DNA of 64,000 nucleotides from an uncultured Acidimicrobiales bacterium. Its GTDB lineage: Bacteria; Actinomycetota; Acidimicrobiia; Acidimicrobiales; VFJN01. Positions 6,615 to 64,000 of this stretch are shown piece by piece (within the stretch, counting starts at the first letter, position 1; the number at the start of each line of letters is the position of its first letter). Location: contig CAVZUI010000013.1 of NCBI GenBank assembly GCA_963778415.1, positions 67,976 to 131,975 of the forward strand, read 5' to 3'. The notes below the pieces were generated by a model, which had not been told where the DNA came from, did no database searches, and saw only the letters and a list, made by a program, of their open reading frames with translations. The translations under genes and the position numbers were made by a program.

Positions 6615-7177
6615 ATGCGGGACCTCTGGGCGGAACTGAAGCAAGCCGTGGGCGCGGCCCTCGACCGGGTGCACCCCGGGGTGCTGATCGTCACCGGCCT
6701 GGCGGCCGTCGTGATCGTGTTCGGCGCGCTGGGCCTGGCGATGCTCGCGGACGGCGACCGTGGCGTCGAGGACCTCGGGCTCGGCGCTCCGCCGGCCCGG
6801 TCGGCAGGAGGGCGAGGCCGCGTCCGACGACGGCGGGTCGGCCGGCTCGGGCGGCGGGGGCGACTCGCTGTCCGACGGCCTCACGACGCGTGGCGAGGAC
6901 CGATCGGGCGACCCGGGCGGCAGCGTCACGCCGCCGCGGCGGGCCCGGCTGCCGCGACGGGCGCCGCCGCGCCGTCGTCCGCACGCGGACGGGGCCCCGC
7001 CGACGGCGGCGGTCGCCTCCCGGCACCGGTCCCACGACGACCGGCGCCCCCGCGCCGAGCCCACCGCCCCCGCCACGACGGCCACGACCGCGGCCCCCAC
7101 CACGCCGCACGACCGCACCCGATCAGTCGAGCCCCGGCCTGCTCGGCGGTCTGCTCGACGTGCTCGGCCTCGTCTGA
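6615..7177 (+). CDS. Hypothetical membrane-anchored Gly/Pro-rich protein (frame uncertain after ~6800)
   Basis: ATG 6615 gives MRDLWAELKQAVGAALDRVHPGVLIVTGLAAVVIVFGALGLAMLADG, one clear TM helix. Downstream is low-complexity sequence readable only by switching frames (SDDGGSAGSGGGGDSLSDGL; ...DQSSPGLLGGLLDVLGLV-stop at 7177). No family was recognised. Confidence 0.35.
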
Positions 7178-7203
7178 CGGCGCGGCCCCGGCTCAGGCGG
7201 CGG

Positions 7204-7792
7204 TCAGGCGACCGCCGCCGCCGCGTCGGACGCCTCGGGCTGCTCGTCGGTGCGGGCGGTGCGCACGTCGTCGACCGTGACGTTCACCTCGACCACGCGC
7301 AGGCCGAGCATCCGCTGCGTCTTGCGGGCCACGTTGGCCTGCACCTGGCGGGCCACGTCGAGGACGACGTGGCCGAACTCGACCATGATCGTGACGCTGA
7401 TCGCCACGTCGTGGCCCTTGACCTCGGCCTTGACGCCCTGGTCGCCCACGCTTGTTGCCGAGGCCGATGCGCTCGCGGACGCTCTCGACCGCGCGCTCGA
7501 AGTCGCCGCCGAGGTCGGCCACGCCCTCGACCTCCATGGCGGCCAGCCCGGCCACCTTCTCGACCACCTCGTCGGCGATGTGGATGCGGCCCTTGACCTC
7601 GGGCGAGCCCGCCGGCCCCTGGTCGGGGCGGGGCTGCTCTGGTCGAGGTTGCTCGGGCCGCGGCTGTTCCGCCCGGGGTTGCGGGGCGAAGCGCGGTGCG
7701 GTCGCGGCCGCCGGTCCCGGCGCCGGATCGGGGCGCGGCCCGAACGGTGCCGGGCCGTTCTGGCCGGGGGTGTCGGTCGTGAAGTCGGACAT
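7204..7792 (-). CDS. Asp23/Gls24 family envelope stress response protein; one apparent frameshift near 7450
   Basis: ORF 7193-7831 frame from MSDFTTDTPGQNGP...PEVKGRIHIADEVVEKVAGLAAMEVEGVADLGGDFERAVESVRERIGLG. It continues in the ORF 7204-8232 frame: DQGVKAEVKGHDVAISVTIMVEFGHVVLDVARQVQANVARKTQRMLGLRVVEVNVTVDDV. The N-terminus carries EQPRP x3. Confidence 0.85.
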
Positions 7793-7950
7793 CGTGTGCC
7801 TCCTGGTCGCCGCCCACCCGGTGGCAGGCACGCGCGCGCCGGGCCGCCAGGTCCCCAGGTGTTCGCCAGCCCAGCCGCGGCGCCCGTGACTGTACGTCCC
7901 CCGGGCGGCCCTGTCAGTGCCGTCCGGACGGGCGGCGTTAGGGTGGCGCC

Positions 7951-8319
7951 ATGGCCAAGCCCGACGTGAGCATCCCCGCCTCCGAGCCGCCCGCCGACCT
8001 CGTCGTCGACGACATCGTGGTGGGCGACGGAGACGAGGCCACCGCCGGCAACGACGTCGAGGTGCACTACGTCGGCGTGGCGTGGTCGAACGGCGAGCAG
8101 TTCGACGCCTCGTGGGACCGGGGCGACACGTTCTCGTTCCGACTCGGCGCCGGTCAGGTCATCGAGGGCTGGGACACCGGTGTGCAGGGCATGCGGGTCG
8201 GTGGCCAGCGGCGCCTCACCCTGCCCCCGCACCTCGCCTACGGCCCGCGCGGCGCCGGCGGGGTCATCGGCCCCGACGAGACGCTCGTGTTCGTGGTCGA
8301 CCTCGTGGGCGTGAGCTGA
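7951..8319 (+). CDS. FKBP-type peptidyl-prolyl cis-trans isomerase
   Basis: Intact 122-aa ORF: VEVHYVGVAWSNGEQFDASWDRGDTFSFRLGAGQVIEGWDTGVQGMRVGGQRRLTLPPHLAYGPRGAGGVIGPDETLVFVVDLVGV. Confidence 0.95.
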   Translation: MAKPDVSIPASEPPADLVVDDIVVGDGDEATAGNDVEVHYVGVAWSNGEQFDASWDRGDTFSFRLGAGQVIEGWDTGVQGMRVGGQRRLTLPPHLAYGPRGAGGVIGPDETLVFVVDLVGVS

Positions 8320-8374
8320 GAGAGGCCGAGCAGGATGGGCTCTCGTCGCAGCCCACGCGTGGGGATCTCGGAGC

Positions 8375-9425
8375 GTGAGGACCGGCTCGGCAGCCGGCCG
8401 CCAGGCAGCACGTCAAGCGGCGATCCGCGCGGCCGTACCGAACCGCCCCGCGCCCGAGGGTCGTGTGAACGGGCGGGCCGCGTCCGGGCGGTGGGCGGCG
8501 ATCGTCGCCTGCCTGGTGATCGCCGGCGCGGCCGCGTGCGTGCAGGCCGACGTGCCCGAGTCGCTGCCCGGGCCGACGTCGACCACGACGACGACCGCGG
8601 CGCCGACGCCCGAGCCCGACTGCGGGGTTCCCGAGGCGAGCCTGCGCCCGACCGGCCCGGCCACCACCGCGGTGCCGCCGGGCTCGACGATGGCCGAGAT
8701 CCGGGCCCGCGGGCGGCTGCTCGTCGGGGTCGACACCGCCACGTTGCGCCTCTCGAGCGTCGACCCGCAGACAGGCGCTGTTCGAGGGGTTCGACGTGGA
8801 CATCGCCCGCGAGGTGGCCGCCGCCCTGTTCGGCGACCCCGATCGCATCAGCTTCGTCGGCATCCCCAGCAGCGACCGGGTCCAGGCCCTGGTCGACGGG
8901 CGCGTCGACATGGTCGCGGACGTGTTCACCCCCACGTGCAGCCGCCGCGAGGACATCGACTTCTCGACGAACTACTACGACTCGCAGCAGTTGGTGCTGG
9001 TGCGCGACGACGACCCCGCGCGGACGACCGACGACCTCGCCGGCCACACGATCTGCGGCTCGGCCGGTTCGACCACCCTGGCCCGCGTCGCCGAGCTGCC
9101 CGACGTCGAGCCCGTGCCCGCCGCCGAGCGGGCCGACTGCCTGGTGAAGCTGCAGGAGGGCGAGGTCGACGGCATGTCGACCAACGACACGATCCTCGTC
9201 GGCTTCCGCGCCCAGGACCCCAACCTGCGATTCCTCGAGGGCTCGCTCAACCGGGAGCCCACCGCCATCGGCCTGCCGCGCGACCGGCCCGAGTGGGTGC
9301 GCTACGTCAACGCGGTGCTCGACCAGGTACGGACCTCGGGGCGGTGGGTCGAGCTGTACGACCTCTGGCTGGCTGACCTGCTCGGGCCGACCGCCGGCCC
9401 GCCTCCGCCCGTGTACGTCGATTGA
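8375..9425 (+). CDS. Amino-acid (glutamate/polar) ABC transporter substrate-binding lipoprotein; one apparent frameshift near 8775
   Basis: ORF 8375-9376 N-terminus has a signal peptide with lipobox ([16 protein letters not shown]) and [26 protein letters not shown]. The remainder is in ORF 8796-9425: [23 protein letters not shown]...[32 protein letters not shown]...[11 protein letters not shown]. The start codon is uncertain. Confidence 0.85.
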
Positions 9426-18961: not shown

Positions 18962-20207
18962 GTGCACTCCACGCTGGACCTCACCGTCGACCCCACGGGC
19001 GCCGGGTTCGACCCCGCCCGCCTCGGCCGGATCGACGACCACCTGCGCACCCGGTACGTCGAGGCCGGAAAGATCGCCGGCTGCCAGGTGCTGGTGTCCC
19101 GCGGCGGGACGCTGGCGCACGCCGCGACCATCGGGCTGGCCGATCGTGAGCGCGAGGTCCCCGTGCGCCCCGACACGATCTGGCGCATCTTCTCGATGAC
19201 CAAGCCGGTCACCGGCGTGGCGCTCCTCACCCTGTACGAGCAGGGCAAGGTGGCGCTGAAGGACCCGGTCGAGCGGTACCTGCCCGAGTTCCGCGGGGTC
19301 AAGGTGCGCGAGAAGGACGCCGGCGGTGAGGTGCACCTCGTCGACCCGGTGCGGCCGATGACGGTGCGCGACCTGCTGATGCACACGTCCGGCATCGGCT
19401 ACGGCCCGCCGGAGCGCCCGCATGGACCTCGCCACCCTCGGCGACCGCCCGCCGTCGGCCCGGATGTCCGGCGGCGGCGACCTCCAGGTGCTGGTCGAGC
19501 GCCTGGGGCCCGAGCCGCTGCGCTTCCACCCGGGCGCGCACTGGCTGTACTCGTGGTCGACCGACGTGGCCGCCCGGGTCGTCGAGGTGGTGTCGGGGTC
19601 GCGGTTCGACGAGTACCTCCAGGACACGATCTTCGACCCGCTGGGCATGGCCGACACCGGCTTCTCGGTGCCCGACGCCTCGATCGACCGCTTCGCCGCG
19701 CTGTACCGGCGCGACCGGGCCAAGCGGCTGGTGCTCAGCGACGACCCGCTGACCAGCGCCTTCCGCACGCACCCCGAGTTCCTGTCGGGCGGCGGTGGCC
19801 TGGCGTCGACCGCGGCCGACTACCTGCGCTTCTGCCGGATGCTGGCCGGCGGCGGGGCGGTCGACGGCGTGCGGGTGCTGGCGCCTCGCACCGTCGAGCT
19901 GATGCGGACGAACCACCTGCCGGGTGGGGGCGACCTGCGCGGCGTCGCGCTGCCGGGCGGCTACGGCGAGGTCGGCTTCGACGGCATGGGCTTCGGGCTG
20001 ACCGTGGCGGTGTCGTCCGGGCCGGCCGGGACGCAGTCCGCAGGGTCGGCCGGGACGTTCATGTGGGGCGGCCTGGCGTCGACGATCTTCTGGATCGATC
20101 CCACCGACGACGTCGTCGTGGTGTTCATGACCCAGCTCGTGCCGTCGGGGACGTTCGACTTCCGGGGCCAGCTCACCGCCCTCGTCTACGGCGCCCTCGT
20201 GGGCTGA
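18962..20207 (+). CDS. Serine hydrolase, beta-lactamase/esterase (class C-like) family; one apparent frameshift near 19415
   Basis: ORF 18962 frame: GCQVLVSRGGTLAHAATIGLADREREVPVRPDTIWRIFSMTKPVTGVALLTLYEQGK (SxxK motif). It continues in ORF 19422-20207: LRFHPGAHWLYSWSTDVAARVVEVVSG...GGGGLASTAADYLRFCRML...FMWGGLASTIFWIDP. Confidence 0.9.
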
Positions 20208-29916: not shown

Positions 29917-30896
29917 TCACAACCAGCCGCGGCGCCGGAACAGCACGTACAGCCCCAGCGAGATCGCGAGGATGATGATGGCCGATGCGATCACGCCCGA
30001 CGTCTCGCCGGAGCCGGGAAACGGGACGTTCATGCCGTAGTAGCCCGTCACGAGCGTCGGGGCGGCCACGATGGCCGCCCAGCTCGACACCGTCTTCATC
30101 ACCTGGTTCTGCCGGTAGTCCCGCAGCGCGAGGTTGGCGTCGACGAGCGAGCTGGCGATGTCCCGCAGCCCCGCGGTGGTCTCGCTCACCACGACGACGT
30201 GGTCGTAGAGGTCCTGCCAGTACGGCAGGACGGCGGCGTTGACGAGCGCGTGCTCGTGGCGCACCAGGCCGCTCAGCGCCTCGCGCAACGGCAGGACGAG
30301 GCGGTTGAACTGCGACAGCGCCCGGCGCATGTCGAACCACTCGCGCTGCTGATCCGGGCGCAGAGGGCGGTCCGCGAAGACGGAGTCGCTGATGTTCTCG
30401 TAGTAGGTGTCGAACTGGTCGGTCACCGCGAAGTAGCCGTCGACGATGTCGTCGAGCAGGGCGTACACGAGCACGCCGACGCCTTCGGCCGTCAGCGTCG
30501 GTGTCGCTGTCCCAGCGCTTCACGACATCGTCCATGGCGAACTTGTCGTCGGCCCGCACCGTCACGAGCCAGCGATCGCCGACGAACGCGTCGATCTCGG
30601 TCTTGTCCAGTCGGCGCTCGTCGACGTCGAAGCGCACCGCGTGGCGAGGACAGGAACAGGTGGCTCGGGTAGTGGTCGATCTTCGACCGCTGGTGCGGCT
30701 CGAGCGCGTCCTCGATGGCCAGCGCGTGCAGCCCCAGCTCGTCGGTCAGCCCGGCGAAGTCGGCGGCGTCGGGCGCGAGGAAGTCGACCCACACGATCGT
30801 GTGCTCGTCCGCGAGCCGTTCGGAGACGTCGGCGACCGGGAAGTCCTCGTCGGCCAGCACGCCGTCGCGGTAGGCGCGGGTTCGCACGTGACCCAT
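29917..30896 (-). CDS. corA: Magnesium/cobalt transporter CorA; two apparent frameshifts (~30660, ~30490)
   Basis: N-terminus in ORF 30492-30896 (TIVWVDFLAPDAADFAGLTDELGLHALAIEDALEPHQRSKIDHYPSHLFL). The middle is in the ORF 29759-30637 frame (VRFDVDERRLDKTEIDAFVGDRWLVTVR). The C-terminus is in ORF 29917-30474, with the YGMNV (GMN) motif and two TM helices. Confidence 0.9.
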
Positions 30897-30959: not shown

Positions 30960-31839
30960 TCAGATCCCCACCGGGTGCCAGACGGTCTTGGTCTCGAGGA
31001 AGGCCGTCATGCGGTCGAGGCCGGGGTCGGCGGCCCAGTCGATCGCCCCGGCGGGCGGGCGCACCACCCGCTTGAGGTTCTCGGCCGCGGCGCGTTCGAG
31101 ATCGGCCGCCACCTCGGCGTCGGTGATGCCGGTGAGGTCGAGGGCGTTCACGTCCATGTGGGAGGCGAGCCACGGGGCGATCTCGGTGGCGTCGCCGGTC
31201 AGCAGGTTCACGACCCCGCCGGGGACGTCGGACGTGGCCAGCACCTCGGACAGGGTGACCGCGGGCAGCGGCGCGGCGCGGTCGGCGACGACGACGCACG
31301 TGTTGCCGGTGACGATGACGGGGGCGAGCACCGAGACCAGGCCGAGCAGCGACGACGCCGGGGCCACCACCGCCACCACGCCGGTGGGCTCGGGCACCGA
31401 GAAGTCGAAGTAGGGGCCGGCCACGGGGTTCGACGAGCCGCGCACCTGGTGCACCTTGTCGCTCCACCCGGCGTACCAGACCCAGCGGTCGACGGCGGCG
31501 TCGACGAGGCCGGCGGCGTCGCCGGGGGAGAGTCCCTCGCCGTCGGCCACCTCGGCCACGAACTGGTCGCGACGGCCCTCGAGCAGCTCGGCGACCCGGT
31601 AGAGGACCTGGCCGCGGTTGTACGCGGTGGCCGTCGACCAGCCCGAGAACGCCTTGCGAGCCGCGACCACCGCGTCGCGGGCGTCCTTGCGCGAGGCCGA
31701 GCGCGGCGTTGGCGAGGAAGCGGCCGTCCTCGGCCCTGACCTCGTAGGTGCGGCCCGACTCGGAGCGCGGGAACGCCCCGCCCACGTACAGCTTGTACGT
31801 CTTGCGCACGGCGAGACGCTCGGGGGTCGCCTCAGACAT
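30960..31839 (-). CDS. Aldehyde dehydrogenase-like protein lacking the catalytic domain (about 293 aa); one apparent frameshift near 31690
   Basis: The start MSEATPERLAVRKTYKLYVGGAFPRSESGRTYEVRAEDGRFLANAA (ORF 30562-32391 frame) joins ORF 30960-31670 (ARKAFSGWSTATAYNRGQVLYRVAELLEGRRDQF...VVAVVAPASSLLGLVSVLAPVIVTGNTCVVV...GGVVNLLTG...ENLKRVV...FLETKTVWHPVGI). Its start overlaps the stop of the upstream ALDH by 8 nt. Confidence 0.75.
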
Positions 31840-41956: not shown

Positions 41957-43265
41957 CGGGGCCGTTCGTAGGGCTGGCCGACGGCGGCCGGCGCCACCGA
42001 CCGGCCGACGGCCCCGGCCACCACGATGATCGTCACGACGTAGGGCAGCGCCTGCCAGAACTCGCTGGGGATCGAGAAGTCGCCGATCGTGACGTCGAGG
42101 ATCTGCAGGCGGGTGCCGAGCGCCCGCGTGAAGCCGAACAGCATGGCCCCGGCGAACGCGCTCCACGGCCGCCAGCGGCCGAAGATCAGCGCGGCCAGGG
42201 CGATGAAGCCGGCGCCGTTGGTCATGTTGTCCTGGAAGCCGCCCTGGCCCTCCATCGAGAACCAGGCGCCGGCCGAGGCCCGGCGATCAGCCCGCCGAGG
42301 ATCACGGCCTGGTAGCGGATCTTGATCACGTCGATGCCCAGCGTCTCGGCCGCGTGCGGGTTCTCGCCGCACGACCGGACCCGCAGACCCCACGGCGTGC
42401 GGAACAGCACGAACCAGGTGGCGGCGACGATCACGAACATCGCGAAGAAGATCGGCTTGTTCGTGAAGAGCTGATCGCCGACGACCGGGATGTCGGACAG
42501 CAGCGGGATCGAGATCTCGGACGTGGCGACACCGGTCGAGATGTCCCGCGGCACGATCACCTGCGACCGCAGGAAGCTGGTGAGCCCGAGCGCCAGCAGG
42601 TTGATGACGACGCCCGAGATGATCTGGTCGACCCGGAACGTGACCGAGACGAGCGAGTGCAGCGCGCCGATCAGCCCGCCGGTGAGCACGGCGGCGAGGA
42701 TGCCGATCCACAGCCACGTCGGGTCCTGCGCGTCGCCGAGCACCGCGTAGACGGTGAAGCCCGACACCGGCGGCGCCCAGCATCATGCCCTCGATGGCGA
42801 TGTTGACGACGCCCGAACGCTCGGACCACAGCCCGGCCATGGCCCCGAGGGCGATCGGCGTGCCGAGGCGCAGCGACTCGACGATCAGCTGGACGACGTT
42901 GGTCGACGGCGCCTCGGACCACGCCAGCGAGAGGATGACGACGAGCGGCGCCAGCAGCACCGCCGACACGATCAGGCCGGCCCGGGCGTAGCGGCCCCAC
43001 TGGGGCGAGCGCCCGATCACGAAGGTGGCGACGGCGGCGATGACGAAGAAGATCGCCGATGGCGACGACCACCGTGCGCGGCGAGAACGAGATCTCGGCC
43101 GGCTCGGGCGGTTGCTCGAGCGTGAACGACTTGGTGGCGTCGTCGAGGTTGGGCGCCACGTAGCCGACGAGCATCACGCCGAGGATCCCGAAGATGCACC
43201 CCGATGGTCTGGAAGCGGTCGAGCCCGCGGGACGGCGCGCCGCCACCGTCGTCGCCGTCAGTCAT
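41953..43265 (-). CDS. Nucleoside (BMP-type) ABC transporter permease, second subunit; about four apparent frameshifts
   Basis: Pieces: MTDGDDGGGAPSRGLDRFQ; CIFGILGVMLVGYVAPNLDD...; ORF 41953-43020 (GRYARAGLIVSAVLLAPLVVILSLAW...ESLRLGTPIALGAMAGLWSERSGVVNIAIEGMML); ORF 42222-42767 (FTVYAVLGDAQDPTWLWIGILAAVLTGGLIGALHSLVSVTFRVDQIISGVVINLLALGLT...FRTPWGLRVRSCGENPHAAETLGI); tail FQDNMTNGAGFIALAALIFGRWRPW. Confidence 0.88.
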
Positions 43266-44445
43266 GCCGTTCCGCCCCACTCGGTGCCGAACTGGGGTTC
43301 CTCGAACCCGCCCTCGGTCTTCGTGCGCGATGCGGAACACCGTGCGCACGATCACGTCGGCGGCGACGAACAGCAGCACCAGCGCCTGCACGATGCGCAC
43401 GATGTCGATCGACAGGCCCGTCTCCTGCTGCATCAGGGGCGCCCCGGCCAGCATCGAGCCCCACAGGATGGCGGCGGGGACGACCGCGAACGGGTTGGCC
43501 CGGGCCAGCAGGGCGATGGCGATCGAGTCGAAGCCGACCGCGACGAACACCCCGGGGCTGAGGTAGCCCGACGTGCCCGGCGATCTCGCCGGCGCCGGCC
43601 AGCCCGGCGAAGCTGCCGGCCATCGACCATCACCATCACGATGACGGTCGAGACGCCCACGCCGGCGTAGCAGCGACGCGTGCGGGTTGGCGCCGACCAT
43701 GCGGATCTCGAAGCCCTTGGTGGTGCGCTGCAGCACGAACCACACGAACACGCACAGGCCGAGCATGATCAGGAAGCCGACGTGGAGCGGCGGGGAGCTG
43801 TCGACGAGGCTCGGGCAGCCGGGCTCCGTCGGAGATCGAGGCGCTGCGGGCCACCGAGGCGCCGGGGTCGCGCAGGATCAGCGGGTCGGTCGAGTTCACG
43901 AGCCACCGCACGATCACCAGGGCGATGTTGTTGAGCATGATCGTCGTGATCACCTCGTGGGCCCCGGTGCGCACCTTGAGGACGCCGGGGATCGAAGCCG
44001 TAGAGCGCGCCGCCGATGGCGCCGGCGACGAGCACCGTCACGACGGCGAGCGGGCCGGGGATGTCGTTCGACCACGTCCCAGGTCCCGACCCAGGCGGCC
44101 GCGGTCGCCCCGACGAGGAGCTGGCCCTCGACGCCGATGTTGAACAGGCCGGCACGGAAGGCGAACGCCACGGCGAGCGCGGCGCCGATGAACGGCGTGG
44201 ACCGCCCGAGCGAGGCGGCCACCCGGTCCCAGCTGCCGAACATGCCGCGCAGCAGCGACCAGTAGGCCGTGAACGGGTTCTCGCCGACCAGCAGGATGAC
44301 GATCCCGCCGACGAAGACGGCGAGCAGGATGGCGCAGATCGGCACGAGGATCGGCTGGAGGTCGAAGTAGTCGCGCAGGAAGCGCACCGCCGCCGACCCG
44401 CCCTGGCCCTTCGCCGTTGCCGTTGCGGGGCTCGCTCGCGCTCAC
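43262..44445 (-). CDS. Nucleoside (BMP-type) ABC transporter permease, first subunit; about four to five apparent frameshifts
   Basis: Pieces: VSASEPRNGNG...; ORF 43950-44387 (RFLRDYFDLQPILVPICAILLAVFVGGIVILLVGENPFTAYWSLLRGMFGSWDRVAASLGRSTPFIGAALAVAFAFRAGLFNIGVEGQLL); ORF 43636-43974 (RTGAHEVITTIMLNNIALVIVRWLVN); ORF 43017-43766 (MLGLCVFVWFVLQRTTKGFEIRMVGANPHA...AVGFDSIAIALLARANPFAVVPAAILWGSMLAGAPLMQQETGLS). The stop overlaps the next start (ATGA). Confidence 0.85.
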
Positions 44446-59229: not shown

Positions 59230-59652
59230 ATGCGTGCGGTGGTCATCTACGAGAGCCTCACGGGCAACACGGCGAGAGCGGCCAGGCTCGTCGCGGACGA
59301 GGTGGCGGCGCAGGGCGTCGAGGTGTCCGTCTACGCGATCACCGACATCGGGCTCAAGGACCTGGCCGAGGCCGACATCGTGTTCATCGGCACGTGGGTC
59401 GACGGGCTCGTGCTCTTCGGACAGCGCCCGGGCCGGGCGGGGCGCATCAAGGCCATGCCGGTCATCGACGGCAAGCGCGTCGCAGCCTTCATGACCTATG
59501 CCATCAACGCCGGCAAGGCCCTCGAGCGCTTCGTCCGGGTGCTCGACGAGCGGGGGGCCACCGTCGTCAGCGCCACCCTCCTGCGGCGTGACCGTCTCGA
59601 GGCCGGGGTCGCCGGCTTCGTGACCACGTCGCTCGACAGCGTGCCCGCGTAA
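59230..59652 (+). CDS. Flavodoxin family protein
   Basis: Intact 140-aa ORF: MRAVVIYESLTGNTARAARLVADEVAAQGVEVSVYAITD...ADIVFIGTWVDG. Confidence 0.85.
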   Translation: MRAVVIYESLTGNTARAARLVADEVAAQGVEVSVYAITDIGLKDLAEADIVFIGTWVDGLVLFGQRPGRAGRIKAMPVIDGKRVAAFMTYAINAGKALERFVRVLDERGATVVSATLLRRDRLEAGVAGFVTTSLDSVPA

Positions 59653-59705: not shown

Positions 59706-60892
59706 GTGCGTTCCTCGACCCGCCGAACCATCCTCTGGGCGTTGGCCCTCGTCCTCGGGCTGGTGCTCGTCGGCGTGGCCTACGTCCGGGGCGGCGACGG
59801 CAGCGGGTCGGCCGACACCGCACCCGACTCACCCAGCCCACAGGTGCCCGACGATCCCGGTGAGGGCTGCGGCGAGGCGGCCACCACCGACCCCGAGGAC
59901 CTGGCGGTCGACCGGACCCTGGCGCGGTGCGAGGCGGGTGCGCCCGCGGCACAGCCGCTGGCCCGGGCCGCGACCGTGCGGGTGGCGATCACCGAGCGCA
60001 CCGAGACGGTGTCCCCGGTCCTGGTCGCCGACGCCCTCGACGAGTTCACGGCCGAGAACCTCGCCGTCGAGATCATCGACCTACCCGGCGGCGAGGCCTA
60101 CGCGCGCCTCCAGCGCGGCGAGGTCGACGTGGTCGTCGGTGGCATGGACGGCCCGTTCTTCGACGCGGTCGACGGCGGGTTCGGGGCGCGGATCGTGCTC
60201 GGCGGTCAGGTCGCTCGCCGGCCGAGCGACCTCGACACCGCCCAGGCCGGCTTCTGGATCCGCCGGGGGCTGATCAACGAGGCAGGTGAGTGGGACAACG
60301 TCGAGGGCCAGACCGTCCTGGTCCCCGGCGGGCTGACGGCGGCGGCCACGCTGCCCATCGACACGCTGCTGTCCCAACACGCGCTGGGCGCCAACTCGAT
60401 CGACATCGTTCCGGCGACGTCGCACCAGGCGGCCGAGACGTTGCACGCCGCCGCCTCCGGGGGCGCCTGGCTGGCCGAGCCCGACGCCGTCGAGGCCGCG
60501 GCCGACGACGCGCTGATGCTGGTGGCCACCACGCCCGGCAGCGAGTCGATCGACGGGACCGTCTTCGGCCCCCGGTTGCTCGGGCCCGAGCGGGCCGTCG
60601 GGCTGGCGTACGTCCGGGCCGTGATCCGCACGATCAACACGCACATGCCCGACGGGTACGAAGAGGATGCGCTGGAGGCCGTGTCCCAGGCGCTGGACGT
60701 GGACGAAGAGGTGGTGGCCGACGGGCCCGGCGCCGCTGTTCGACTGGGAGGTCCGCGTCGGGCACGACCACCCGGGTGCAGGACACGCTGACCGCGCTCG
60801 GCGGCGTCGGCTACGAGCGCGTGATCGGCGAGGACCTCCTCGTCGACCGCTCACTGGCGGCCGACGTCGTGAGCGCCGCCGACCCGGGCTGA
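59706..60892 (+). CDS. ABC transporter substrate-binding protein (NMT1/SsuA-like fold); one apparent frameshift near 60735
   Basis: ORF 59706-60791: signal/TM (RRTILWALALVLGLVLVGVAYV), VRVAITERTETVSPVLVADALDEFTAENLAVEIIDLPGGEAYARLQRGEVDVVVGG...GQTVLVPGGLTAAATLPIDTLL. The tail is in ORF 60290-60892 (VQDTLTALGGVGYERVIGEDLLVDRSL). The family assignment is moderate. Confidence 0.65.
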
Positions 60893-60946: not shown

Positions 60947-62194
60947 TCACCCGTCGGCGTCACCCGACAACCGACCAGCGACGAGCGACGCCCGTTCGGG
61001 CGCTGCGCTCAGCCGCTGGCAGCCCAGGTCCAGGCGTACGTCCGGGTCCTCGCACGCCCGGGCCGCGCCCCCGAGGGCCAGCGGAGCGAACGTGTCGACC
61101 ATCACCGCCAGCTCGTCGGTGGACTCGGCGCCGAGCGACGCCTCGACGCTGCCCGGCTGCGGCCCGTGGGTGAACCCTCCGGGGTGCAGGCTGATCGACC
61201 CGGCCCCGATGCCGGCGCCCTTGCGGCTGGTGAAGTCGCCGGCGCAGTAGAACAGCACCTCGTCGCTGTCGACGTTGGCGTGGTTGTACGGCGTGGGCAC
61301 GGCGTCGGGGTGGTAGTCGAGCTTGCGCGGCACGAAGCTGCACACGACGAAGCGGGGCCCGGCGAAGGTCTGGTGGACCGGCGGGGGCTGGTGGACGCGC
61401 CCGGTGATCGGCTCGAAGTCGTGGATCGACAGGCGGTACGGGTAGAGGCACCCGTCCCACCCGACGACGTCGAACGGGTGGTGCGCGTACCGGTACCGGG
61501 TGAGGCCCGACCGCTGGCGCACGAGCACCTCGACGCCGTCCGCTCCGGGGTCGTCGTCGACGAGGTGGAGCTGTTCGGGTCCGTGGAGGTCGCGCTCGCA
61601 GTACGGGCTGTGCTCGAGGAACTGCCCCGTGGCGGACAGGTAGCGCTCCGGCGGGCCGACGTGGCCGCGCGCCTCGACCACGAGCGCGGCCACCGGCTCG
61701 TCGCCGGCCGCGCCGGTCGGGACCCAGCGGTGGGTCGTCCCGGTGGGCACGACGACGTAGTCGCCGGCGCGGCAGTCGAGGGTCCCGAACGACGACTCCA
61801 GCCGGGCCGTGCCGGTGCGCAGGTAGACGATCTCGTCGCCGGTCGCGTTCCGGTAGAGGCCACTGGGCGTCGTGGGGTGCGCGACCGCCAGGCGCACGTC
61901 GTCGTTGGCCAGCAGGACGCGGCGACCGGTGACCAGGTCGCCGCCGGCCTCCAGCTCGGCGGTGCGCAGGTGGCGAGGCAGCAGCGGCTCGTTGGCCTGC
62001 AGGTCGTCGTCGGGCGCGGCGATCGGGTCGGCGCCGAGCAGTGCGGTGGGCGGCCGGCGGTGGTAGAGCAGCGCCGACGACGCCGAGAAGCCCTCGGTCC
62101 CCATGAGCTCCTCGGCGTACAGGTGCCCGTCGGGGGCACGGAACTGGGTGTGCCGCTTGGGCGGCACCTCACCGACGCGGCGGTAGTACGGCAC
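60947..62194 (-). CDS. hmgA: Homogentisate 1,2-dioxygenase; probable frameshift near 61040 (likely true stop 61009)
   Basis: ORF 60947-62404 frame from GTG 62194 (RBS GAGGAGG): VPYYRRVGEVPPKRHTQFRAPDGHLYAEELMGTEGFSASSALLYHRRPPT...YRNATGDEIVYLRTG...DYVVVPTGTTHRW...HHPFDVVGWDGCLYPY...HQPPPVHQTF...YNHANVDSDEVLFY...SISLHPGGFTHGPQPG. An alternative frame at the end gives DPDYAWTWAASG-stop. Confidence 0.92.
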   Translation of the reverse strand: MPYYRRVGEVPPKRHTQFRAPDGHLYAEELMGTEGFSASSALLYHRRPPTALLGADPIAAPDDDLQANEPLLPRHLRTAELEAGGDLVTGRRVLLANDDVRLAVAHPTTPSGLYRNATGDEIVYLRTGTARLESSFGTLDCRAGDYVVVPTGTTHRWVPTGAAGDEPVAALVVEARGHVGPPERYLSATGQFLEHSPYCERDLHGPEQLHLVDDDPGADGVEVLVRQRSGLTRYRYAHHPFDVVGWDGCLYPYRLSIHDFEPITGRVHQPPPVHQTFAGPRFVVCSFVPRKLDYHPDAVPTPYNHANVDSDEVLFYCAGDFTSRKGAGIGAGSISLHPGGFTHGPQPGSVEASLGAESTDELAVMVDTFAPLALGGAARACEDPDVRLDLGCQRLSAAPERASLVAGRLSGDADG

Positions 62195-62858
62195 GGCGTC
62201 CTCCTCTCGTCGTGGCGGGACTGGTGGCTCGATCGCCGGCCAGGCCGGCGGCGATCCGCCCGGCCGCGGCCCGCACCGCCGACGCCACGTCGGGGTCGGG
62301 CGGGAAGCGGTGGGCCGGGGCGACCACGGCCAGGCTGGCGATCGGCTCGCCGTCGGGCCCCAGCACGGGCGCGGCCACGCCGCGGACCCCGGGCTCGAGC
62401 TCACCTTCGGACACGGTGGCCCCCGCGCCGGGATCGAGCAGGGCGCGGCCGCTGGCCGCCAACGTGAGGGGGTGGCGGGTCCCCGTGCGGTAGTTGACCT
62501 GCAGGACGCCGGCCCGCCCGATCACCTGGTCGACGGCCACGGCGTCGTCGCCGTCGCGGACGCTGAGCACCGCGGTCTCGCCGAAGTGCCCGGCGAGGCC
62601 TTCGAGCTCGGCCCGGGCCAGCACCCGGAGCTCGGGCTCGACCCCGGCGGCCAGGGCCAGCAGGCCCAGCCCGGCCACCCACCCGTGCGGGGTGCGGCGG
62701 GTCAGCCCGTGCGACTCGAGGGTGACCAGCATGCGCCCGACAGCGGAGCGCGACTGCCCGAGGCCGCGGGCGAGCGACGCGGTCGTGTCCCCCTGGCGGT
62801 CGGCGACGAGGCGGAGGAGGCTCAGGGCGGTGTCGACGGTCTTCGACTGTTCGGCCAT
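62169..62858 (-). CDS. IclR family transcriptional regulator
   Basis: ORF 62169-62858: KTVDTALSLLRLVADRQGDTTASLARGLGQSRSAVGRMLVTLESHGLTRR...ELEGLAGHFGETAVLSVRDGDDAVAVDQV...NYRTGTRHPLTLAASGRALL...GVRGVAAPVLGPDGEPIASLAVVAP. The last ~30 aa look off-composition, and the 3' end overlaps the hmgA start by 26 nt. Confidence 0.88.
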   Translation of the reverse strand: MAEQSKTVDTALSLLRLVADRQGDTTASLARGLGQSRSAVGRMLVTLESHGLTRRTPHGWVAGLGLLALAAGVEPELRVLARAELEGLAGHFGETAVLSVRDGDDAVAVDQVIGRAGVLQVNYRTGTRHPLTLAASGRALLDPGAGATVSEGELEPGVRGVAAPVLGPDGEPIASLAVVAPAHRFPPDPDVASAVRAAAGRIAAGLAGDRATSPATTRGGRRAVLPPRR

Positions 62859-63016
62859 CGTGCGGCTCCGAACGTCGGCACGCCTCGGGGCGGGATTCTC
62901 GCCACACGACCGGGCGTGTCGCCGGTACTCTCTGTGTCAGTTCGGTGAACAACGGCACACATTGCCGACGTCTCCCGATACCCGGACACTAACCTCCGCT
63001 CCCCGGAGGTGCCCGT

Positions 63017-63784
63017 TTGCCCACAGCCCTCAGGGCGGTCCTCCCGCATTTGTTCGACGATGCAGGACTGTTCCCGCCCGCCAAGCTCCCCATGGCCGAG
63101 GCCCTGGCCGCGCACCAGCGCGCGCTCGCCGGTCCGCATCGCGAGGTCGTCGGCCCGTTCCTGTGCCCGGCGACGCGCCTCGACGAGCTCGACGCGTGCG
63201 TCGCCTCCGGCGCGGTCCGCCCGACGGCGCTCGGGATCATCGGCTACGCCGGGCAGCTCGACTGGCGGCGGCCGATGGCCGTGCGCGGGGTGGTGCAGGC
63301 CGAGGCCCCCATCGGCGCAGGCATGCCCGTGCCACCCGGTCGGATCGTCCGCTACCTCGAGCTGCCCCACCGTGGCGCCATCGGCCCGGCCCTCGACGAG
63401 GTGGTGCGGGCGAGCGCCCGTGCCAAGGTGCGGTGCGGCGGCCTGACCGACGATGCGATCCCGACCGTCGAGTGGCTCGCCGAGGTGCTCGTCGGCTGCG
63501 TCGAGCGAGGCCTGCAGCTCAAGGCGACCGCCGGCCTGCACCACGCGTTCCGCGCCGGGCGGCGTGAGCCGCCGCGCCACGGCTTCGTCAACCTGCTGGC
63601 CGCGGCGGCCGTGGCCCGGTCCCGTGCGTCGGTCGGCGAGGTGGCCGCGGTCCTGGCCGCCGAGGAGGCCGACGCGAGCGACCTCCCGGGCCGCGTGGCC
63701 GGTGCCCGCGAGCTGCTCACCTCGATCGGGACGTGCTCGATCGACGAGCCCCTCGGCGAGCTGGCCGTGCGGGGCCTGTTGTGA
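63017..63784 (+). CDS. Conserved hypothetical protein (255 aa) immediately upstream of fahA
   Basis: Intact ORF with a TTG start: LRAVLPHLFDDAGLFPPAKLPMAEALAAHQRALAGPHREVVGPFLCPATRLDELDA...RAKVRCGGLTDDAIPTVEWLAEVLVGCVERGLQLKATAGLHHAF...HGFVNLLAAAA...SIGTCSIDEPLGEL. Composition is protein-like and third positions are GC-rich. No family was recognised. Confidence 0.75.
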   Translation: MPTALRAVLPHLFDDAGLFPPAKLPMAEALAAHQRALAGPHREVVGPFLCPATRLDELDACVASGAVRPTALGIIGYAGQLDWRRPMAVRGVVQAEAPIGAGMPVPPGRIVRYLELPHRGAIGPALDEVVRASARAKVRCGGLTDDAIPTVEWLAEVLVGCVERGLQLKATAGLHHAFRAGRREPPRHGFVNLLAAAAVARSRASVGEVAAVLAAEEADASDLPGRVAGARELLTSIGTCSIDEPLGELAVRGLL

Positions 63785-63809: not shown

Positions 63810-64000
63810 GTGACCGCGCTCCGGTCGTGGGTGGCCGGTGCCGACGGCTCGGGGTTCCCCGCCGAGCACCTGCCGTACGGCGTCGTGTCGACCGCGGGCG
63901 GACCACCGCGGGTCGGCGTGCGGATCGGCGATCACGTGCTCGACCTCGCCCGGCTGGCCGACGACGGCGTGGCCGGCCTGGGCGGCCTGCTGGAGGGCAC
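63810..64000 (+). CDS. fahA: Fumarylacetoacetase, N-terminal part (gene runs off the right edge)
   Basis: GTG 63810: VTALRSWVAGADGSGFPAEHLPYGVVSTAGGPPRVGVRIGDHVLDLARLADDGVAGLGGLLEG. This matches the FAH N-terminal domain pattern (FP..NLPYGVFS...PR.GVAIGD.ILDL). Confidence 0.85.
   Translation, partial: MTALRSWVAGADGSGFPAEHLPYGVVSTAGGPPRVGVRIGDHVLDLARLADDGVAGLGGLLEG

Follow-up and report, generated by a model that had tools for sequence, protein, structure and literature searches.

A gene family linked to fumarylacetoacetase encodes predicted TIM barrels that might serve as maleylacetoacetate isomerases

The locus of gene X

We analysed a stretch of 64,000 nucleotides from an uncultured Acidimicrobiales bacterium (assembly GCA_963778415.1, contig CAVZUI010000013.1; hereafter, the window), in which a gene that we call gene X lies directly upstream of the gene for fumarylacetoacetase (FAH). 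Gene X (63017-63784, forward strand), characterised by open reading frame (ORF) calling, by its homologues, and by AlphaFold models, belongs to an unannotated family of predicted TIM barrels and is a candidate for the maleylacetoacetate isomerase of the homogentisate pathway. A preliminary description of the locus, made from the DNA letters without database searches, had reported an intact ORF of 255 residues with native composition. Both points held. The coordinates were exact, the gene starts with TTG and stops with TGA, and a Shine-Dalgarno sequence, GGAGG (63005-63009, forward strand), which is invariant in five Acidimicrobiia loci, is located 7 nt before the start. The codon-position GC of 0.81/0.55/0.93 resembles that of the genes beside it (window GC, 73.7%). 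The TTG start is credible because 60 homologues align with the protein end to end, from residue 1 to residue 255. Gene X is a real, conserved gene.

The fahA gene begins with a GTG codon 25 nt after the stop codon of gene X, and the window end cuts it (63810-64000, forward strand). Its 5' part matches Pfam FAA_hydrolase_N (2e-10) and TIGR01266, and fahA is complete downstream of X in the loci of relatives. An IclR-family regulator (62169-62858, reverse strand; Pfam HTH_IclR and IclR_C) is divergent from X and fahA and overlaps by 26 nt the start of hmgA (60947-62194, reverse strand), which encodes a short-type homogentisate 1,2-dioxygenase (Pfam HgmA_N). The hmgA frame is open to 62404, and the alignment with homologues begins at the GTG codon at 62194, giving 415 residues. 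The protein is short and divergent, with a weak TIGR01015 score of 43.6 bits against a cut-off of 510, and is 52% identical to a PGAP-annotated homogentisate 1,2-dioxygenase from Priestia. PGAP labels for short-type HmgA proteins vary among "homogentisate 1,2-dioxygenase", "HGD domain-containing protein", and "cupin domain-containing protein". The ORFs and the Pfam and TIGR01266 matches confirmed the previously described arrangement of IclR and HmgA on one strand and X and FAH, 25 nt apart, on the other.

Tyrosine and phenylalanine are broken down aerobically mainly through the homogentisate route. The only isomerase known for this route, to our knowledge, is a glutathione-dependent glutathione S-transferase (GST), and Actinomycetota and Bacillota make no glutathione; therefore, annotation pipelines leave the isomerase step blank or guessed. 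The preliminary description had also noted that no GST-like or DinB/MDMPI-like gene is visible in the window. This statement holds for a tblastn search with MaiA, the GST-zeta isomerase, as the query, and for Pfam scans of 20 mid-size ORFs, which found no GST or DinB domain and are a non-exhaustive survey of 64 kb rather than of a genome.

A protein family new to annotation

The protein had been described as unknown, and we found it so: X gave zero matches to Pfam and NCBIfam at E ≤ 1, including GST_N and GST_C, and no match in the Protein Data Bank (PDB) either by phmmer or by a 60-sequence profile. When 84 diverse members of the family were compared with Pfam at E ≤ 10, no relevant family emerged; GST_N, GST_C, HpcH_HpaI (PF03328), and the flavin-barrel families were all absent, and a match of one member to DinB_2 at E = 1.7 is noise. 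The family is nevertheless large. A profile of 38 sequences, scored against 1.84 billion representatives at 50% identity, retrieved 5,590 of these clusters with E ≤ 1e-3, of which 2,723 also reached E ≤ 1e-30, and word-indexed searches with three family queries found at least 1,583, 3,725, and 929 relatives. Nearly all the listed relatives are stand-alone proteins of 250-335 residues, and their names are nearly always "hypothetical" or "uncharacterized", the exceptions being two UniRef entries named "HpcH/HpaI aldolase/citrate lyase domain-containing" and one stray JGI label. Annotation has so far not recognised the X family; the reaction discussed below and its pathway are already known.

Linkage of X to FAH across nine phyla

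We collected X loci by scanning GTDB genomes, one for each species, with a pattern, which yielded at least 592 loci, of which the best 80 were kept. FAH lies directly downstream of X on the same strand in 72 of the 78 assessable loci (69 by ORF analysis and three by tblastn, namely one frameshifted gene and two at contig ends; two of the 80 were not assessable). These loci come from eight phyla: Actinomycetota, Acidobacteriota, Gemmatimonadota, Planctomycetota, Cyanobacteriota, Vulcanimicrobiota, Armatimonadota, and Bacteroidota. Priestia records in PLSDB bring in a ninth phylum, Bacillota. Within Actinomycetota, X occurs in Acidimicrobiia, Streptomyces, Nonomuraea, Rhodococcus, Actinosynnema, Gaiellales, and others. 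Co-occurrence of the family with hmgA and fahA, which the preliminary description had proposed as a check, is thus present. Its rationale that actinobacteria lack glutathione stands only in part, being incomplete for a family that Cyanobacteriota, Acidobacteriota, Gemmatimonadota, and Planctomycetota commonly carry as well.

HmgA is encoded within about 3 kb upstream of X in roughly 40 of the 80 loci; in most of them it adjoins X, usually on the same strand, to give the order HmgA-X-FAH. A few loci deviate, such as L045 with HmgA downstream. HPPD genes were found in about 14 loci and IclR genes in about 18. X partners both short HmgA (about 35 loci, the commoner case) and canonical HmgA (seven loci, 53-61% identical to the Sphingobium enzyme), and its linkage to FAH is tighter than that to HmgA. 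The spacing between X and fahA is a 4-nt overlap in several relatives, or a gap that is often shorter than 30 nt.

The most compact operons are particularly informative. A Priestia megaterium plasmid carries hppD, X, fahA, a hisC-type aminotransferase gene, hmgA, and an amino-acid permease gene in this order, with an X protein of 338 residues named "hypothetical" and a family membership probability of 99.9. In Tsukamurella tyrosinosolvens, hppD, hmgA, X, and fahA follow each other with 4-nt overlaps. In both operons, isomerisation is the sole reaction without a gene, and X is the sole gene without a reaction. S. peucetius has hmgA-X-fahA, again with 4-nt overlaps, beside an IclR gene and the two subunit genes of a 3-oxoacid CoA-transferase, an enzyme that would activate the acetoacetate formed. 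Rhodococcus rhodochrous and Pseudonocardia also have the order hmgA-X-fahA, and the control cluster of Sphingobium reads phhA-hppD-hmgA-fahA-maiA.

Apparent fusions of X with FAH in L017, L023, L002, and L019 were rejected, as the FAH frame extends upstream and X has its own stop codon. In L072, a metagenome-assembled genome (MAG) of Sphaerisporangium, X and FAH share one frame without a stop between them (7137-9176), which reflects either a genuine fusion or an error in the assembly; this single in-frame case is too little to be used as evidence.

X and MaiA occupy different loci

With Sphingobium MaiA as the query, tblastn matched the Sphingobium control alone and gave no homologue either in the window or in 84 other X-containing loci. 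Among plasmid records in PLSDB, an even sample of 60 of the 239 MaiA-bearing rows consisted entirely of Pseudomonadota, and the 23 X-bearing records came from Streptomyces, Priestia, Rhodococcus, Pseudonocardia, Nonomuraea, and one cyanobacterium. We also approached the question from the side of FAH, using 80 metagenomic loci ranked by similarity to human FAH and picked without reference to X, 57 of which had at least 900 nt upstream and were assessed. X lies just upstream of FAH in 25 of them, a striking 44%, and MaiA just downstream in three; none has both, and in 29 neither adjoins FAH.

In about half of these 29 loci, a canonical HmgA gene abuts FAH. The flanks of these roughly 15 loci (among L094-L154, where only L127 has MaiA) contain neither X nor MaiA; there, either the isomerase gene must be unlinked or yet another solution must exist.

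The partner FAH retains the canonical active site

Over its full length, the FAH of S. peucetius is about 50% identical to a solved fumarylacetoacetase chain, 9sqs, which we take to be human FAH (E = 2.6e-117). We aligned 71 FAH sequences, comprising 66 X-linked enzymes together with those of Priestia, S. peucetius, and R. rhodochrous, the MaiA-linked enzyme of Sphingobium, and human FAH, and verified the residue numbering against the printed alignment. Thirteen residues are invariant in 71 of 71 sequences: D126, Y128, H133, R142, Y159, E199, E201, D233, R237, Q240, K253, T350, and E364. Their roles follow the structure papers on mouse FAH; Y128, R142, and Y159 presumably hold the fumaryl carboxylate. 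The neighbour of X is a fumarylacetoacetase by its Pfam and TIGR01266 matches and by these 13 retained residues, and the X-linked FAHs most likely act on the trans substrate, as usual. No partner protein is required by human FAH, and canonical FAHs with all 13 residues should therefore work on the same substrate and without a special subunit.

Predicted fold and conserved residues

AlphaFold2 models of the window protein (pLDDT 94.2, pTM 0.92) and of its 36% identical S. peucetius homologue (pLDDT 95.5, pTM 0.92) both consist of eight beta-alpha units. The predicted fold of X is an eight-stranded TIM barrel; the models settle the fold class, and leave the superfamily unsettled. Foldseek comparison of both models with the PDB returned nearly exclusively TIM barrels with probabilities up to 1.0 and all E-values above 1e-3. 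The matches were scattered over a CitE-like lyase, DERA and a DERA-based design, ADH synthase, dihydroorotate dehydrogenase, F420 enzymes, members of the isocitrate-lyase/phosphoenolpyruvate (PEP)-mutase group, DRE-TIM lyases, and triosephosphate isomerase. The top match of the second model was the CitE-like lyase 3qqw (E 2.8e-3, TM 0.45), with unrelated barrel families equally good; other best matches were the DERA-derived design 3nq2, DERA 1n7k (TM 0.50), and homocitrate synthase 2zyf.

Profile comparison by hhalign gave probabilities of 0.2-0.3% against E. coli CitE and GarL, a weak test with single-sequence templates. Against the DeoC-like aldolase encoded in the window, the probability was 0.3%, with only a 16-column local match (LKATAGLHH versus VKAAGGIRS). 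X shares the eight-stranded beta/alpha barrel with the PEP/pyruvate-binding barrels (HpcH/HpaI aldolase, CitE-like, isocitrate lyase/PEP mutase, PanB), the DRE-TIM metallolyases, and DERA, but the Foldseek matches spread over many superfamilies and the hhalign probabilities stay below 1%. Membership of X in a described family was rejected, given that Pfam, NCBIfam, and the PDB give nothing relevant, Foldseek gives only weak, unspecific barrel matches, and hhalign is negative. A confident homology to an unrelated function, named beforehand as an outcome that would speak against the isomerase idea, was sought by profile, Foldseek, and hhalign and was not found.

We assessed conservation in the 80 genomic homologues and the 84 diverse representatives, using the residue numbering of the window protein. 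Invariant or near-invariant are D14 and D15 at the end of strand 1, E96 on strand 4, and E115 at the end of strand 5. These are followed by the strand 6 motif K137-x-R139-x-G-G (G141, G142), the segment K169-A-T171-A-G-L-H175 on strand 7 and in the following loop, G189 and N192 at the start of helix 7, R231, and G238-x-C240-S241 at the end of strand 8. The conserved polar residues lie at or just after the C-terminal ends of the strands, from which we infer that they would face the usual catalytic side of a TIM barrel. The near-invariant lysines are on strands 6 and 7, and the Schiff-base lysine of DERA is on strand 6, a resemblance that is suggestive only.

The preliminary description had pointed to several conserved-looking cysteine and histidine positions. 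Cys240, in the GTCS motif, is present in 82 of the 84 representatives and His175 is family-wide; these two bear out the suggestion. His176 and Cys161 do so partly, His176 being found in 97% of the 80 genome loci but in 54 of the 84 representatives, and Cys161 in 78%. Cys50 (45% of the 80 loci), Cys61 (under 20%), and Cys140 (at most 49%) are specific to sub-clades; most of the cysteines singled out earlier are not conserved.

Possible function and mechanism of X

The best-supported reading of the comparative data is a non-orthologous displacement, in which X would act as the isomerase where the GST-zeta enzyme is absent. We assign a probability of about 60% to the proposal that X is the maleylacetoacetate cis-trans isomerase of the homogentisate pathway, a stand-alone TIM barrel unrelated to GST-zeta MaiA. 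X would take maleylacetoacetate from HmgA and hand fumarylacetoacetate to FAH, and the X and fahA genes would be co-transcribed and, where they overlap, translationally coupled. The linkage to FAH, the pathway hole, the absence of MaiA from the X loci, and the canonical FAHs support the earlier suggestion of a candidate isomerase or accessory factor as a hypothesis, and the comparative evidence favours the isomerase over the accessory factor, making it a strong hypothesis.

The near-invariant Cys240 amid conserved histidine, lysine, arginine, and acidic residues suggests covalent catalysis by a thiol of the protein itself. We speculate that Arg139 and Arg231, together with the two lysines, might hold the two carboxylates of the substrate, while the acidic cluster of Asp14/15, Glu96, and Glu115 with His175, and perhaps a divalent metal, might polarise the 4-oxo group. 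The Cys240 thiolate could then add to the C2=C3 double bond, allow rotation, and leave. X's own cysteine would thereby replace the glutathione thiol used by MaiA, as does the active-site cysteine of maleate isomerase. X is probably independent of a thiol cofactor; lineages with mycothiol, bacillithiol, or glutathione all carry X, and it is therefore probably not tied to any one of these thiols. The Cys240 mechanism would explain how the family serves all three kinds of organisms alike. Alternatively, the reaction may proceed via a Schiff base through K137 or K169. Somewhat doubtful, and put forward only tentatively, is the broader proposal that X founds a new TIM-barrel family of thiol-cofactor-independent isomerases that use their own cysteine, and that this family, in place of GST-zeta, is the usual maleylacetoacetate isomerase outside Pseudomonadota and eukaryotes.

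Several observations weigh against the isomerase assignment. Six of the 78 assessable loci have X without an adjoining FAH, among unrelated neighbours such as an acetyl-xylan-esterase-like gene, a glycosyltransferase gene, and a gene for a pyridoxal phosphate (PLP) enzyme. Cys240 is replaced in two of the 84 representatives. Residue placement was read from the DSSP strings of both models, and the spatial clustering of the conserved residues is deduced from secondary structure only. Foldseek gives no clue to the enzyme class of X. The mutual exclusivity of X and MaiA next to FAH points in the right direction, but with only three MaiA loci we judge the numbers too few for significance. The absence of MaiA and MDMPI was checked at the level of loci and replicons, and on one Streptomyces plasmid a gene with an MDMPI_N domain lies 4 kb from X. 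Full-text literature, in a search whose coverage excluded most subscription journals, contained no maleylacetoacetate isomerase other than GST enzymes and nothing on the X family.

Alternative explanations

X could instead be a helper, such as a keto-enol tautomerase, a side-product detoxifier, or a partner of FAH, with the isomerisation either spontaneous or catalysed by an unlinked enzyme of the MDMPI/DinB or crotonase type. Actinomycetota carry many MDMPI-family paralogues, of which one lies near X on the Streptomyces plasmid, and the closer tie of X to FAH than to HmgA would also fit such a role. An adjoining enoyl-CoA hydratase/isomerase was moreover named "mai" in a Rhodococcus genome paper (PMC4591350). 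MDMPI-like and crotonase genes do not recur across the X loci, however, and the compact Priestia and Tsukamurella operons hold X and no other isomerase candidate. The partner FAHs, about 50% identical to the partner-free human enzyme, possess the full catalytic set, and, with roughly a dozen polar residues that are near-invariant, the barrel resembles an enzyme rather than a scaffold. We regard a helper function as unlikely.

The gene context places X around the step from HmgA to FAH without specifying the reaction, and X might therefore bypass isomerisation, either as an ene-reductase or hydratase making succinylacetoacetate or a hydrated intermediate for FAH, or by processing the product of hydrolysis of the cis isomer. 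The weak Foldseek matches to FMN and F420 barrels with a catalytic cysteine or lysine (dihydroorotate dehydrogenase, nitronate monooxygenase, IMPDH) could be taken in this sense. The lack of any flavin-barrel Pfam match among the 84 members argues against it, as do the small size of the protein (250-300 residues) and the absence of a recurring partner gene that would supply reductant. The invariance of Y128, R142, and Y159 in the X-linked FAHs likewise points to the usual trans substrate. Such a bypass seems quite improbable to us. That X is unrelated to tyrosine and homogentisate catabolism and is a mere conserved neighbour of fahA is suggested by the six loci with unrelated genes, and is hardly credible given that the two genes stay adjacent on one strand in nine phyla, in many cases overlapping by 4 nt or separated by less than 30 nt. 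This adjacency holds with both types of HmgA and reappears in the FAH-centred sample.

Relation to known isomerases and implications

The proposed reaction of X is that of MaiA/HmgC, the glutathione-dependent GST-zeta enzyme, and the operon logic is the same, with the gene order hmgA-fahA-maiA in Sphingobium compared with hmgA-X-fahA, or hmgA divergent from X-fahA, at the X loci. MaiA has a thioredoxin-like GST fold, whereas X is a predicted TIM barrel without sequence similarity to it. Unlike MaiA, X is found mainly outside Pseudomonadota, in users of three low-molecular-weight thiols, none of which it would probably need as a cofactor. An analogous maleyl-to-fumaryl step is catalysed in the gentisate pathway by the Gram-positive maleylpyruvate isomerases, the mycothiol-dependent, DinB-like MDMPI and the L-cysteine-dependent BagL. 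These are DinB four-helix bundles acting on maleylpyruvate, and X has no meaningful match to DinB or MDMPI_N. Maleate cis-trans isomerase, of the Asp/Glu racemase superfamily, is cofactor-free and works by covalent addition of an active-site cysteine. Its mechanism is the one proposed here for Cys240 of X, but the fold is unrelated, two cysteines are catalytic, and the substrate is free maleate.

The Rhodococcus genome paper reports hmgA as AII08874 and fahA as AII08876, omits the gene between them, and calls a nearby enoyl-CoA hydratase/isomerase "mai" (PMC4591350). The accessions between hmgA and fahA that are missing from its hmg cluster tables (Table, S18; including BCP1) are AII08875 and KDE10816 (PMC4591350). 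The omitted gene is probably a homologue of X, and the isomerase step appears to be an unrecognised annotation gap. If X is the isomerase, a pathway hole would be closed in thousands of genomes, with effects on metabolic models, and 5,590 clusters of "hypothetical proteins" would receive a name. The assignment would also bear on the engineering of Streptomyces and Rhodococcus where tyrosine drain and pyomelanin matter, and it would mean that cis-trans isomerisation can be catalysed in a new way, on a TIM barrel.

The leader of gene X and other features of the window

The segment 5' of gene X (62975-63016, forward strand) is a conserved leader or operator, recognised from the alignment with relatives and from a minimum-free-energy hairpin. 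Its sequence hardly varies among the five Acidimicrobiia loci, although the identity of their X proteins is only about 51-91%. Within it lies a perfect palindrome, CCTCCG (62993-62998)-N5-CGGAGG (63004-63009), which as RNA would form a 7-bp hairpin pairing the Shine-Dalgarno site. The hairpin has no match in Rfam and a fold z-score of only -1.6, and the invariance of both arms in the five loci leaves no room for a covariation signal; a known RNA element was rejected on these grounds. The palindrome could alternatively be a DNA operator of the divergent IclR regulator.

Between a flavodoxin-like ORF (59230-59652) and hmgA, the window contains an ORF of 361 residues (59706-60791, forward strand) with good coding statistics and no Pfam match, and the relative L081 has a 396-residue ORF, also without a Pfam match, at the equivalent position. 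Partial Pfam domains were found in the window ORFs 19422-20207, 29917-30474, 30960-31670, 42222-42767, and 43950-44387, namely beta-lactamase, CorA, aldehyde dehydrogenase, and two pieces of a branched-chain permease. The FAH gene of the relative L001 (91% identical) is split across frames. These partial and split frames suggest frameshift errors of long-read MAG assembly, or pseudogenes; gene X itself is intact.

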